NCBI GenBank assembly: GCA_963779755.1
Contig: CAVZZO010000001.1
Location: 2,080,001-2,144,000 of the forward strand
DNA: 64,000 nt
From: an uncultured Gemmatimonadales bacterium
GTDB taxonomy: Bacteria; Gemmatimonadota; Gemmatimonadetes; Gemmatimonadales; GWC2-71-9
Reading direction: 5' to 3'
The position numbers were made by a program, and so were the translations under genes. This document shows, in pieces, positions 4,605 through 53,680 of this stretch. Numbering within the stretch: the first letter of the stretch is position 1; every line of letters starts with the position of its first letter. The notes below the pieces were generated by a model that was not told the origin of the DNA, ran no database searches, and saw only the letters and a program-made list of their open reading frames with translations.

Positions 4605-6362
4605 ATGCCTGAACTCAGCTCCTACGAACCGATTACCTCCCACACCGGGCTTCGTGTCCGGGAAGACCTTCTTGACGAGGAATACAGTCAGGAAGACTAC
4701 GAAAAAATGCTCCCTCTGTACGAGCAGACGATGGCGTCTATCGCCGAGGGGGAGATCGTCAAGTCGAAGGTCCTGCGGGTCACGGACAACGCCGTCATTC
4801 TGGATGTCGGCTTCAAGTCCGAGGGCTCGGTGCCGCTGGATGAGTTCAAGGAACCGGAAAATCTGAAGGAAGGCGACGAAGTCGAGGTCTTCCTGGAGCA
4901 CCTGGAGGATCAGGAGGGCGCGGTCGTGCTCTCCAAGAAGAAGGCCGACTTCATGCGGGTCTGGGAGAAGATCCGCCAGGCCTATGAAAGCGATCAGCCG
5001 GTCGAAGGTACCCTGGTCAAGAAGATCAAGGGCGGCGTCGTGGTGAACCTGATGGGGGTGGATGCCTTCCTCCCCGGCAGCCAGATCGCGCTGCGCCGGG
5101 TGCCCAACATCGACGAGCTGCTGGGCAGCACCTACGAGTTCAAGATCATCAAGCTGAACAAGCGCCGGCGGAACATCGTGGTGAGCCGCCGCGTCATTCT
5201 GGAGCACGAGCGGGCGCACAAGCGCGAGCACCTGATGAAGGAGCTCGAGGTCGGGCAGGTGCGGAAGGGTGTGGTCAAGAACATCACCGATTTCGGCGCC
5301 TTCATCGACCTGGGCGGCGTGGACGGCCTGCTGCATATCACCGATATGTCCTACGGGCGGGTCTCCCATCCGTCGGAAGTGGTCCAGATCGGCCAGGAGG
5401 TCGAGGTCAAGATTCTCGACATCGACTGGCAGCGCGAGCGCATCAGCCTGGGCATGAAACAGCTCCAGCCCTATCCCTGGAAGGACGTGGCCGAGAAGTA
5501 TCCGGTGGGCACCCGGGTCCAGGGCAAGGTCGTCTCCATCACCAACTACGGGGCCTTCGTGGAGCTGGAGCCGGGCATCGAAGGCCTGGTGCACATCAGC
5601 GAAATGAGCTGGACGCGCAACGTGCGCCACCCGTCCAAGATCGTGAGCATCGGCGAAACGATCGAAGCCGTGGTGCTCAAGGTGGACGAGAGCGAGGAGA
5701 AGATCTCCCTCGGCATGAAGCAGACGGAGCAGGATCCCTGGGTGGTGCTGCCGCTCAAGTATCCGGTGGGCACCCGCATCAACGGCAAGGTGCGCAACCT
5801 GACCAGCTTCGGTGCCTTCGTGGAAATCGAGCCCGGCATCGACGGCCTGATCCACATCTCCGACATGTCCTGGACCAAGCGGATCCAGCACCCCTCGGAG
5901 GTGGTCAAGAAGGGCGACGCGGTGGACGTCGTCATCCTCAACATCGACGGCGACAACAAGCGGATCAGCCTCGGCCTCAAGCAGGCGGAAGAAGATCCCT
6001 GGCTCAAGATCGGCGAAACCTATCCGGTCAACATGGAGTTGCGCGGCACCGTGACCCGCCTGATGGACAAGGGGGTGGTGGTGGACCTGGGCAACGACAT
6101 CGAGGGCTTCGTGCCCATGTCGCAGCTGGGCGTGGCCGAGATCCAGCAGCCGGGCGATGCGGTCCGCGAGGGCCAGCCCGTGGATCTCAAGGTCCTGGAG
6201 GTCGATCCCATCCATCACCGGATCGTCCTGGCGGTGGTGGGCTACCCCGAGTTCGACCCCTCCACCCTGCCGCCCCCGCGCCCGCCGGAAGAGACCCCGG
6301 CCGAGAGCGAGAGCGAGAACGACGCCGAGGCCTCCGCCGAGGAAGCGGCCCCGTCGGAATAA
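4605..6362 (+). CDS. rpsA: 30S ribosomal protein S1
   Basis: Repeated S1 domains (FGAFIDLGG, YGAFVELEPGIEGLVHISE); ATG 4605 after purine-rich SD. Confidence 0.97.
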   Translation: MPELSSYEPITSHTGLRVREDLLDEEYSQEDYEKMLPLYEQTMASIAEGEIVKSKVLRVTDNAVILDVGFKSEGSVPLDEFKEPENLKEGDEVEVFLEHLEDQEGAVVLSKKKADFMRVWEKIRQAYESDQPVEGTLVKKIKGGVVVNLMGVDAFLPGSQIALRRVPNIDELLGSTYEFKIIKLNKRRRNIVVSRRVILEHERAHKREHLMKELEVGQVRKGVVKNITDFGAFIDLGGVDGLLHITDMSYGRVSHPSEVVQIGQEVEVKILDIDWQRERISLGMKQLQPYPWKDVAEKYPVGTRVQGKVVSITNYGAFVELEPGIEGLVHISEMSWTRNVRHPSKIVSIGETIEAVVLKVDESEEKISLGMKQTEQDPWVVLPLKYPVGTRINGKVRNLTSFGAFVEIEPGIDGLIHISDMSWTKRIQHPSEVVKKGDAVDVVILNIDGDNKRISLGLKQAEEDPWLKIGETYPVNMELRGTVTRLMDKGVVVDLGNDIEGFVPMSQLGVAEIQQPGDAVREGQPVDLKVLEVDPIHHRIVLAVVGYPEFDPSTLPPPRPPEETPAESESENDAEASAEEAAPSE

Positions 6363-6382
6363 GACGGCCCATCAGCACCAGG

Positions 6383-6414
6383 AAAAGCCCCGTTCATTCG
6401 AGCGGGGCTTTTTT
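6383..6414. terminator. bidirectional rho-independent terminator
   Basis: AAAAGCCCCGTTC-ATTC-GAGCGGGGCTTTTTT. Confidence 0.85.
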
Positions 6415-6871
6415 ACCGCGAAGACGCGAAGGGCGCGAAGGGTCCGAATACCTTGTCTTTTGTAGGCCGGTGTTGATTTACAATTCGCCGGATCCCTCTC
6501 CCAAGGACCGGGACGTTGAAATTCATCAGCAGCGCCAGAGGCAGGCGGAGCAGTCGGAGGTAGGTTAGCACCTGGGCCAGGTGGATAGCAGTTACCTCTT
6601 CAACCGCTTTGACCTCCACCAGCAGCACCCCTTCAATCAGGAAGTCAGCCCGGTAACTGCAAGGAAGCCGGACGCCTTTGTAGAAGACCGGCAGTGCCAC
6701 CTCGCGCTGGTGTTCCAGGCGCCGCAGGGAAAGTTCGTGACCCAGGCATGTCGCATACGCGCTTTCGAGCAGGCCCGGGCCGAGGCTCCGGTGAACTTCG
6801 ATCGCCGCGCCGATCACCTGATGGGACAGACGGTCCGCAAGGTCGGACTTTTGTACTAGGTCGATTGCCAT
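6413..6871 (-). CDS. GxxExxY protein (PD-(D/E)XK nuclease-like)
   Basis: VIGAAIEVHRSLGPGLLESAY, YRADFLIEG.LLVEVKAV, AQVLTYLR, LLMNFN. Confidence 0.92.
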   Translation of the reverse strand: MAIDLVQKSDLADRLSHQVIGAAIEVHRSLGPGLLESAYATCLGHELSLRRLEHQREVALPVFYKGVRLPCSYRADFLIEGVLLVEVKAVEEVTAIHLAQVLTYLRLLRLPLALLMNFNVPVLGRGIRRIVNQHRPTKDKVFGPFAPFASSR

Positions 6872-6965
6872 GCCCCCACAGTACACATCCCAACGCCTTG
6901 AAACGTACCAAAAACTCACGATCCTCATCCTTTCGCGCTCTTCGCGAGCTTCGCGTCTTCGCGGT
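6415..6965. mobile_element. putative cassette: GxxExxY gene bracketed by 26-bp inverted CGCGAAG-array arms
   Basis: 6415-6440 ACCGCGAAGACGCGAAGGGCGCGAAG matches the reverse complement of 6940-6965 CTTCGCGAGCTTCGCGTCTTCGCGGT at 24/26; mobility is inferred. Confidence 0.55.
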
Positions 6966-6989
6966 TCCGCCCCGGCTATATTCCGGCCC

Positions 6990-8542
6990 ATGCCCGATCC
7001 CCGAAACCTCCTCGACGATCTCCACCGCCGGCAGGCCGAGGCCGAGCAGGGCGGGGGGAGCAGCGCATCGCGCAACAGCACAAACGCGGCAAGCTCACCG
7101 CCCGCGAGCGGCTCGATCTCCTCCTCGACGAGGGCAGCTTCGTCGAGTACGACCGCTTCGTAGTCCATCGGGCCACCTCGTTCGGCCTGGACCAGGAGAA
7201 ATACCCGGGCGACGGCGTCGTCACCGGCTACGGGCGCATCGACGGACGCCTGGTGTACGTCTTCTCCCAGGATTTTACCGTCTTCGGCGGCTCGCTCTCG
7301 GAAACCTTCGCCGAGAAGATCTGCAAGATCATGGACCTCGCGGTGCGCAACGGCGCGCCGGTGATCGGCCTCAACGATTCGGGCGGCGCCCGCATCCAGG
7401 AGGGCGTCGCCTCCCTCGGCGGGTACGCCGACATCTTCCTGCGCAACACCCTGGCGTCCGGCGTGGTCCCCCAGATCTCCGCCATCCTGGGCCCCTGCGC
7501 CGGCGGCGCCGTCTACAGCCCCGCCATCACCGACTTCGTGTTCATGGTCCGCAACCTGAGCTACATGTTCGTCACCGGGCCCAACGTGGTGAAGACGGTG
7601 ACGCACGAGGAGGTGAGCTTCGAGGAGCTGGGCGGCGCCGACACCCACGCCGGTACCTCGGGCATCGCCCACTTCGCCTGCGACAGCGAGCCGGAATGTC
7701 TCGCCGCCATCCGGGAACTGTTCAGCTACCTCCCCGGCAACAACGTGGACGATCCGCCCTTGCGCCCCAGCGATGATCCTCCCGGGCGGCGCGACGAGTC
7801 GCTGCTGGGGGTCATCCCCGAGGCGCCGTCCCGCCCCTACGACATGCACGAGGTCATCCGGGCCGTGGTGGACGAGGGCACCTTCTTCGAGGTGCATCGC
7901 GAGTTCGCCGGGAATCTCCTGACCGGATTCGCCCGGTTGGGCGGCCGCCCGGTGGGGCTCATCGCCAATCAGCCCGCCGTGCTGGCCGGAGTGCTGGACA
8001 TCAACGCGTCGGTCAAGGGGGCGCGGTTCATCCGTTTCTGTGATGCTTTCAATATCCCGCTCGTCACCTTTGTAGACGTCCCCGGGTTCCTGCCCGGGGT
8101 GGCCCAGGAGCACGGCGGCATCATCCGGCACGGGGCCAAGCTGCTCTACGCCTACTGCGAAGCCACCGTGCCCAAGCTGACGGTGATCACCCGCAAGGCC
8201 TATGGCGGAGCCTATGACGTGATGAGCTCCAAGCACATTCGGGGCGACCTCAACCTGGCCTGGCCCTCGGCGGAGGTGGCGGTCATGGGGCCCAAGGGCG
8301 CGGTCGAAATTCTGTTCCGCAAGGAGATCGCCGAGTCGGCCGACCCGGCCGAAGCCGCCGCCCGGTTTACCGACGACTACACCAGGCGGTTCGCGAATCC
8401 CTATAGCGCGGCGGAGCGGGGCTTCGTGGATGACGTCATCGACCCGCGCGACACCCGGCCCCGGCTGATCGACGCGCTGGCCACCCTGGCCACCAAGCGC
8501 GACCGGAATCCGCCGAAGAAGCATGGGTGTATACCGCTGTAG
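6990..8542 (+). CDS. pccB: acyl-CoA (propionyl-CoA) carboxylase beta subunit; frameshift at G-run 7053-7058
   Basis: [13 protein letters not shown] in one frame continues as [45 protein letters not shown] in the -1 frame. Confidence 0.9.
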
Positions 8543-8606
8543 GGACAGGGGATAAGGCACCAGGGACAGGGGATCCCGTCTGTCCCTGGTCCCTTGTGCC
8601 CTGTCA
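8541..8606. repeat. inverted 7-nt tandem-repeat element (AGGGACA / TGTCCCT)
   Basis: AGGGACA GGGGATA AGGCACC AGGGACA ... TGTCCCT GGTCCCT TGTGCCC TGTCAC, starting at the pccB stop. Confidence 0.8.
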
Positions 8607-8655
8607 CGGTATGAACCATGTTACAGGCCTGAAACAGATCTCCGATTCCAAGCCC

Positions 8656-53110: not shown

Positions 53111-53680
53111 GGCGGTAGAGGCGGTAGAGGCGGTAAGGGCGGTAAGGCGGGGTGGCGGGACAGGCTTCAGGGAGCCGCCGGTGGATTCCCCAGTGAGCGA
53201 TACAGCGCCCACGTCACCACCCCTGCGTGATTCCGTAGCTTGTCAATGGTCTCCCAATTCTCCTGAGGCAGATAGCCCAGATCGCGGGCCAGTCGGAGAC
53301 AATAGGACAGTTCTGACAAGGACCCCAGGGAGATGTCCAGAAACCTGCGGAACTCTCTTCTCCCGCGCTTCGCTGAGCCCTCAGCGATATTGACAGCCGC
53401 CGAGAAGGCCGAACGCCGCGCCTGCGCCATGAGGCCGTAGGTCTCCTCCCGGGGCCAGCGCCCGGTTGCTCGATAGACCTCCAGGACCAGCCGGTGGCAC
53501 AGCCTCCAGGCCTCGAAACGCTCATATGGCGGCATTCTGAATACCTGGCCCTGAGCGTCAACCCAGTATCAACTCCGCCATCAGCACTCCAATCCCACAG
53601 CACCCTCCTCAGCCGCCCTTATCGCCTCTGCCGCCCCTGCCGCCCTTACCGCCCCTACCGCCTTTCCCGCCTTGCCCGCC
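53111..53680. mobile_element. putative cassette: four-helix-bundle gene bracketed by inverted 9-mer arrays
   Basis: Left (GGCGGTAGA)-type units at 53111-53150; seven right (CCGCCCCTA)-type units at 53613-53680; mobility is inferred. Confidence 0.55.
53167..53535 (-). CDS. four helix bundle protein (23S rRNA IVP / Avd-like family)
   Basis: Y.RFEAW..C..LV.EVY..T..WPREETYGL.AQ.RRSA.S...NIAEG, F.RFL.IS.GSL.EL. Confidence 0.93.
   Translation of the reverse strand: MPPYERFEAWRLCHRLVLEVYRATGRWPREETYGLMAQARRSAFSAAVNIAEGSAKRGRREFRRFLDISLGSLSELSYCLRLARDLGYLPQENWETIDKLRNHAGVVTWALYRSLGNPPAAP

Follow-up and report, generated by a model that had tools for sequence, protein, structure and literature searches.

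Why does a small gene of the GxxExxY family lie between rpsA and pccB, enclosed by two facing copies of one repeat array and placed directly behind the stem-loop that follows rpsA? The question is raised by a window of 64,000 nucleotides from an uncultured Gemmatimonadales bacterium (GenBank assembly GCA_963779755.1, contig CAVZZO010000001.1, positions 2,080,001 to 2,144,000 of the forward strand). Its genome is called G000 here, and other G numbers denote relatives in a family set of 151 genomes. An initial annotation had taken gene and repeats for a minimal mobile cassette that had docked at this place. We propose, with a probability of about one half, that the 551 bp from arm to arm (6415-6965) are the gene-carrying member of a genome-wide hairpin family, that the GxxExxY protein is likely a nuclease cutting at the ends of its own arms, and that host repair slowly flips, replaces or seeds the elements. 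According to this, the cassette is likely a slowly mobile element.

The cassette and its gene-less relatives

The two arms are inverted copies with 24/26 identical positions (85% when extended to 34 nt) and form the longest of the 57 inverted pairs within 5500-8000 (Table 1). We call their CGCGAAG-type word RAG, and a second, CGCAGAT-type word GAT. The gene is transcribed from 6871 to 6413, antisense to rpsA and pccB, as had been annotated, and coordinates and sequence comparison also confirmed the arms behind the rpsA terminator. The finer detail that the left arm follows the T-tract and that the open reading frame stops within this tract was equally right: the stem-loop proper covers 6383-6412 and the T-tract 6409-6414, the left arm begins at 6415, and the stop codon TAA (6415-6413) consists of one arm base and two T-tract bases.

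The arm is not private to the GxxExxY gene of the window, as it is repeated all over the genome. With at most 2 substitutions it has 62 matches in G000 vs 3 in one order-5 Markov simulation, so its abundance is not due to chance. A slightly wider RAG pattern detected 79 arms and 23 inward-facing pairs of 57-551 bp (median 146 bp), among which the window pair alone encloses a gene. The GAT family comprises 172 arms and 50 pairs (median 168 bp), and the other GxxExxY genes of G000 have GAT arms, not RAG. By crude gene calls, 70 of the 73 RAG and GAT pairs are outside open reading frames. Most spacers (50/69) are singletons and the remainder are similar only to their local tandem neighbours; blastx of the 69 spacers gave a GxxExxY match in only four, all of them gene-containing pairs, and no GxxExxY remnants were visible in the gene-less ones. 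Compared with shuffles, the palindromy of the single arms has z values of -0.06 (left) and -2.05 (right), with stems of only 4-5 bp.

Several arrangements of these hairpins deserve description on their own. On contig C1 of G000, 16 arms of a gene-less cluster are packed into 4 kb (C1:15905-19959), and six hairpin units of ~270 bp each stand in tandem at C1:709210-710861. On contig C3, repeated whole and partial copies of GAT-clade GxxExxY genes occur together with GAT hairpins (C3:1489108-1506481), interleaved with sequences that we take, from a motif, to be RHS-core tails, which suggests that the elements mark swappable cassettes there. The gene-less GAT hairpins of G054 and G120 (L335-L354) have a nearly fixed length, mostly 226-237 bp, and unrelated spacers; an inner GTGAAC...GTTCAC pair is conserved in them at a fixed distance, and several are nested in one another. 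Among hairpin sites compared between congeners (L347 vs L351, L339 vs L350 and L358 vs L375), one has kept its arms around a drifted spacer and another holds elements that cannot be aligned. G015 has an extra inner hairpin that its congener G156 lacks at the same site.

Arm words follow protein clades

To be counted as flanked by arms, a locus needed an inverted-repeat score of at least 15, and only loci with both flanks were scored. Inverted arms were present at 54/78 GxxExxY loci taken across phyla (78 of 80 had both flanks) and at 66/107 loci within the family, vs 2/270 shifted windows, 2/53 in a further control and 11/593 small called genes of G000. Two of these 11 are themselves GxxExxY genes and four encode four-helix-bundle proteins. 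The enrichment expected around GxxExxY genes in general therefore holds.

Furthermore, the word follows the protein. We mapped word class on a FastTree phylogeny of 189 proteins, after removing 5 short matches and disregarding 32 to which no word could be assigned. The tree requires 9 changes of class, whereas 1000 shuffles required 36 on average and never fewer than 31, and in different phyla, where the proteins are 40-60% identical, a clade has retained its word class. The same link is seen at the genome level, where the counts include the arms beside the GxxExxY genes themselves and the kinship of the genomes inflates the tests. GxxExxY genes are present in 60/151 family genomes, with 1-15 matches per genome. 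At least 3 copies of the strict RAG pattern were found in 26/60 positive vs 1/91 negative genomes, at least 6 triple RAG arrays in 34/60 vs 4/91, and at least 10 GAT arms in 16/60 vs 0/91. In the 57 positive genomes whose GxxExxY genes could be assigned to a clade, RAG arrays go with RAG-clade genes (30/42 with such a gene vs 3/15 without) and are unlinked to the GAT clades (19/30 vs 14/27), and GAT arrays (at least 10) go with GAT-clade genes (15/30 vs 1/27) and are unlinked to the RAG clade (14/42 vs 2/15). A near-total dependence on the gene, apparent with the strict arm pattern (26/27 repeat-bearing genomes), was abandoned because a looser pattern exposed exceptions.

Occupancy of the rpsA-pccB junction

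The family set contains 132 GxxExxY loci, 84 of them with a neighbour that could be mapped to G000. Fourteen of the 84 are at the rpsA-pccB junction, 10 antisense as in the window and 4 sense, so that the junction is occupied in 15/151 genomes when G000 is added. In 10 of the 14, rpsA and pccB flank the cassette directly. Of the other four, two are on contigs that do not include the rpsA side, in one pccB is located elsewhere, and in one an additional gene is present. Among 45 loci near pccB, 14 (G000 included) carry GxxExxY, 25 have rpsA adjacent and no cassette, and 6 have a different neighbour; this sample is non-random (the 30 loci closest to G000, 12 from a first search and 3 known carriers). 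The carriers stand in about seven places of the pccB tree, among empty junctions. An earlier picture in which all relatives were empty (top 30 loci, 41-genome search) was overturned by the wider family sampling. The site is also permissive, since other genes or other repeat arrays are found there in other genomes.

The 15 occupants do not form one clade according to the approximately unbiased (AU) test, in which their monophyly was rejected (p 0.007; 0.018 in a first fast run). Each AU test took the best of 4 or 5 fast searches plus 15-25 refinement rounds. G142 and G081 as sisters were not rejected (p 0.41), and the closest hosts to G000 on both the pccB and the rpsA trees all have an antisense cassette here.

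The congeners G076 and G137 differ by an inversion between the arms. Their proteins are sisters (72%) and their cassettes lie in opposite orientation: the flanks are 90.6% identical on the same strand, the cassette is 68% identical on the opposite strand, and the breakpoints are the outer arm ends. The two cassettes also differ in arm word, with left and right arms matching within each. G079 and G140 are a second congener pair in opposite orientation. Three congener pairs retain sister cassettes in place, which counts against pure mobility; movement looks slow, since within a genus both kinds of element, with and without a gene, are retained at orthologous sites. Synonymous divergence (dS) is near saturation among congeners, so the cassettes could not be dated, and the empty sites of g25 are only 69-77% similar, too diverged to place breakpoints. 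Among public sequencing runs, none contained more than 23% of the sequence words of the window. Sequence joints that skip 6441-6938 were considered as excision products and rejected: they match 26-27 letters per side in contigs from mixed organisms, and are best explained by short hairpins of other organisms.

A second junction behaves in a similar way. It lies between a mutase and an FmdB-like gene (names read from the sequences). Of its 10 cassettes, 8 share one orientation and 2 have the opposite one, and four belong to one genus in which dS is saturated; G024 and G162 have no cassette here, and the monophyly of the occupants was rejected only at the borderline (AU p 0.051). GxxExxY cassettes are also found in family genomes at three more junctions, which in G000 correspond to C1:1924816-1925084, C1:297720-298000 and C3:203432-204287. 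These hold 11 AAW-clade and 8 GAT2-clade cassettes, each in one orientation (possibly vertical), and 10 RAG-clade cassettes in both orientations; in G000 itself these places are filled differently, for example by a heptamer hairpin or an unrelated gene.

These data modify the initial annotation. A discrete, arm-bounded cassette that is missing at 25/45 loci does fit a mobile element, and vertical inheritance in all relatives is not what the rpsA-pccB comparison found. Given the empty junctions and the enriched inverted arms, the gene is neither syntenic throughout its relatives nor placed in flanks like those of other genes. A one-off docking, on the other hand, has to be corrected because the junction is recurrently occupied in both orientations, members of one genus retain their cassettes and the arms belong to a large family of hairpins without genes.

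The GxxExxY protein

The 152-aa protein matches TIGR04256 (E 1.2e-39; 135 bits vs a curated cut-off of 35) and PF13366 (E 1e-38; 133 bits vs a cut-off of 22) and no other Pfam family. It contains E36, D76, E86-x-K88 and Q100xxxY104; in the family alignment E36, D76, E86, K88 and Q100 are conserved at 98-100% and Y104 at 87%. A structure model from a 146-sequence alignment reached a predicted local distance difference test score (pLDDT) of 88 and has a minimal restriction-endonuclease-like core, in which the order of helices and strands fits a core with E in helix 1, D and E-x-K; the model from the single sequence (pLDDT 34) was unusable. The C-terminal tail encoded by the arm is disordered, with pLDDT below 50 across most of residues 137-152. 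Structural matches are nearly all PD-(D/E)XK folds, the best with Z 7.9 and a root-mean-square deviation of 2.9 over 94 residues, and none reached Z 8. Cas4 structures ranked first in Foldseek with a non-significant E of 0.005, an Atlas search matched only GxxExxY clusters, and sequence and profile searches gave no relative with a solved structure. The assignment to a PD-(D/E)XK-fold family, already made in the initial annotation, is thus borne out by the family matches and the modelled core; the structural matches make the fold class clear, though not the substrate.

The QxxxY motif is described for Cas4 and other RecB-like nucleases (PMC4625639), and one paper reports a GxxExxY gene called cas4 by a different tool (10.1101/2021.01.26.428298). 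The intact Cas4/RecB-like active-site residues suggest that the window protein is likely an active nuclease; it has no iron-sulphur (Fe-S) cysteines, and the locus has no CRISPR context. In one syntenic pair the nonsynonymous divergence (dN) is 0.19 vs a dS of 1.47, indicating purifying selection, and an internal stop occurs in 8 of the 150 matches listed, which fits turnover. The family was found in 6/72,556 plasmid records, five of these larger than 400 kb, and in 0/50,697 phages.

Proposed mechanism and alternatives

In the mechanism that we propose, the GxxExxY nuclease would recognise the arrays of its cognate word, probably in the form of an extruded hairpin or cruciform, and would cut at the outer ends of the arms. 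Host repair could then invert, delete, replace or seed elements wherever a gap between terminator and promoter tolerates them. No domain for strand transfer or ligation is evident in the protein, so that host enzymes would be required for joining. By analogy with RAYTs (REP-associated tyrosine transposases), which are thought to act so on REPINs (hairpins of repetitive extragenic palindromes, REPs), it may also act in trans on the gene-less hairpins. With more reserve, and as a tentative generalization, GxxExxY proteins may be the enzymes behind a class of mobile DNA not yet described, which would be driven by a lone Cas4/RecB-like PD-(D/E)XK nuclease. Each clade would read a 7-nt word of its own in the arm arrays, cut where the arms end and, with host repair, insert, flip and replace cassettes at existing stem-loops (terminators, older hairpins), and in many phyla it would maintain tens to hundreds of hairpins without a gene in each genome.

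Several observations weigh against this proposal. The unique spacers give no sign of recent copying to distant sites. The initial annotation saw no target-site duplication, and this agrees with the 73 pairs, in which matches of only 2-4 bp occur, at 8 offsets, and none in 32 of the pairs, in a comparison that had no control and no close empty allele to fix the site. The trees behind the AU tests (55 taxa, 119 columns) are weakly supported, and a single old insertion followed by vertical descent was not rejected for G000 with G070, G056, G081 and G142 (p 0.14). Four genomes without a GxxExxY match hold 10-19 RAG arrays, among them G050 and G107, which are 97-98% complete, and G015 and G104 have ~30 RAG arrays, yet only GAT-clade genes were found in them. 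The match between word and clade can come from physical linkage, and kinship overstates its p-values. Finally, 7 of the 8 four-helix-bundle (PF05635) genes of G000, which are not known nucleases, share the layout: they lie between inward-facing inverted heptamer arrays, each with its own word, and one is in the window (53167-53535, C1:2133167-2133535). Four-helix-bundle proteins occur in 23S rRNA intervening sequences, and to our knowledge they have no nuclease motif.

The main alternative, which we regard as somewhat unlikely, is that the arms and host processes do everything: slippage and hairpin-templated repair would create and maintain the short-word arrays, and recombination would act on them. 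The gene would be cargo with an unrelated job, inverted arms would let host recombination flip or delete the cassette or swap it for an incoming one with shared words, and the word would follow the clade by co-inheritance. Besides the four-helix-bundle genes, a small gene of G000 (C3:1463603-1464010), presumably a DUF559/Vsr-type nuclease from its motif, has a strong inverted repeat on its flanks; cassette-free rpsA-pccB junctions often contain other heptamer or octamer arrays; the congeners G015 and G156 differ in word at one site; some genomes are rich in repeats without having the gene; and no target duplication was found. However, such host processes do not account well for gene-less hairpins that follow the cognate clade and not the other clade genome-wide, that are not visibly cassette remnants, and whose word class has stayed tied to its clade in different phyla.

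A domesticated, vertically inherited gene is improbable for the site as a whole. It would stem from one ancient rpsA-pccB insertion kept for a host benefit such as DNA repair or defence, with many losses and an occasional inversion between the arms. This fits the host subclade of G000, where the nearest hosts are all antisense carriers and monophyly was not rejected, and it agrees with the syntenic sister-protein cassettes of three congener pairs, the rarity on plasmids, the absence from the phages searched and the purifying selection. It does not fit the rejection of one clade for the 15 occupants, the many other junctions at which a genome can have matches (as many as 15 in one genome), or the two orientations at the second junction, and a published family table gives the function of PF13366 as unknown, notes 'multiple transfers, mixed clades' for it and makes no mention of repeats in that row (PMC3424549).

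Very improbable is a role at the RNA level, in which the arms would pair in the transcript as in intervening sequences, the loop being processed out or termination or mRNA stability being aided, and the protein might be an RNase: the plus strand does fold with its arms paired (z -5.6), the cassette abuts a terminator and GAT hairpins are frequent between convergent genes (23/50 vs 300/1571 background gaps, by crude gene calls), but any inverted repeat folds, both orientations occur at one site, G:U-compatible mismatches between the arms are not biased to one strand (92 sense and 105 antisense in 112 cassettes) and no Rfam match was found.

Features of the locus

Table 1. Features of the rpsA-pccB junction, in window coordinates
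Feature	Position	Strand	Basis or remark
rpsA, ribosomal protein S1, upstream host gene	4605..6362	+	PF00575 x6, E 6.8e-101; possible alternative start GTG 4569
Stem-loop resembling an intrinsic terminator, with A-tract and T-tract	6383..6414	.	DNA fold -13.3 kcal/mol, z -5.4
GxxExxY gene for a predicted minimal PD-(D/E)XK nuclease of 152 aa	6413..6871	-	TIGR04256, PF13366, conserved columns, model, fold matches
Left arm, ACC plus CGCGAAG words, period 8-9 nt	6415..6440, reaching ~6448	+	Inverted-repeat comparison
Right arm, facing the left arm as its inverted copy (24/26)	6940..6965, inward to ~6932	-	Inverted-repeat comparison
TATATT, -10-like hexamer	6977..6982	+	7 nt ahead of the pccB ATG
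pccB-like carboxyl transferase, downstream host gene	6990..8542	+	PF01039, E 3e-173

The cassette occupies the short gap between the rpsA terminator and the TATATT hexamer. The stem-loop 6383-6414 was not listed by a simple terminator scan; it is likely bidirectional, in which case transcription of the antisense GxxExxY gene would stop there too. A search of 6300-7100 for sigma-70 promoters gave no consensus match. Because similar hexamers precede pccB in relatives (a TAnnnT hexamer directly before the ATG in many junctions, as judged by eye), TATATT is likely the promoter of a leaderless pccB transcript that the cassette has spared. The initial annotation regarded the gene as AT-richer than its neighbours, and this holds clearly against pccB (G+C content 0.60 vs 0.68) and the chromosome (0.685) and only slightly against rpsA (0.63); at third codon positions (GC3) the values are 0.69 for the GxxExxY gene and 0.91 for pccB.

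In a stretch of six G (7053-7058) the reading frame of pccB apparently shifts by one base, whereas relatives stay in frame; this is probably a homopolymer sequencing error. Just past the pccB stop, at 8540-8610, lies an unrelated gene-less hairpin of AGGGACA-like heptamers (z -6.0).

Significance and comparison with known systems

GxxExxY proteins are a widespread family of unknown function, which appears by name in 3 of ~8.4 million papers; in the searched literature we found no description of a link between their genes and inverted arm repeats (most subscription papers and supplements lay outside the search). The arms are a concrete candidate substrate for these proteins; the clades with different arm words, two of which are present in G000, are a built-in specificity control; and the filled, empty and inverted alleles of the rpsA-pccB junction are natural substrates for a direct test. 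If our proposal is true, a large class of unannotated intergenic repeats would be explained and a 130-aa word-specific DNA-cutting protein would be added. If the nuclease moves or maintains the hairpins, a partnership like that of REPIN and RAYT would have evolved twice, the second time with an enzyme of unrelated fold.

Compared with homing endonucleases, which cut the empty allele and are copied into one conserved site, the picture is mixed: the cassettes have recurrent sites, their empty junctions share no evident target sequence beyond terminator and promoter, and both orientations occur. With Cas4 and other RecB-like nucleases the window protein shares the QxxxY motif, as given in the available text on these enzymes (PMC4625639), but neither the Fe-S cysteines nor a CRISPR locus. 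The four-helix-bundle genes of G000 have the same gene-in-hairpin layout, with heptamers of other words and an unrelated protein. Insertion sequences with the miniature inverted-repeat elements derived from them, and likewise the TIRtrons of PMC3733652, resemble the cassette in having terminal inverted repeats around a gene, together with shorter forms that lack the gene but keep the ends. Unlike them, the cassette has no DDE or Y1 transposase, no target duplication was found, and its short forms have unique internal sequences rather than identical dispersed copies, the spacers of G054 and G120 being also unalike.

The closest comparison is with the REPIN-RAYT system (REPtrons), as far as it is set out in the available portions of its descriptions (10.1101/2021.07.10.451892, PMC8266576, PMC3733652). 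Several differences separate the two. The enzyme here has a PD-(D/E)XK fold, whereas RAYTs are Y1 HUH transposases, and the three Y1 (PF01797) transposase genes of G000 have no arm words within 600 bp. The GxxExxY gene lies inside one hairpin, its arms are tandem arrays of a 7-nt word with at most weak palindromy, where REPs are 14-bp palindromes with a GTAG/CGTC tag, and, in contrast to the single-copy, host-congruent RAYTs, it is often multi-copy, polyphyletic at one site and found inverted. Nevertheless, both systems combine extragenic elements of ~100-200 bp, in which the two inverted ends are conserved and the spacer between them varies, with a small nuclease-type gene flanked by cognate repeats; in both, enzyme group and repeat type co-vary, repeats are more numerous where the gene is present (here 34/60 vs 4/91, in kin genomes), plasmids and phages are nearly free of them, and the dynamics are slow. 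By this analogy the cassette family, although not a member of the REPIN-RAYT system, would work most like it, with a different enzyme.

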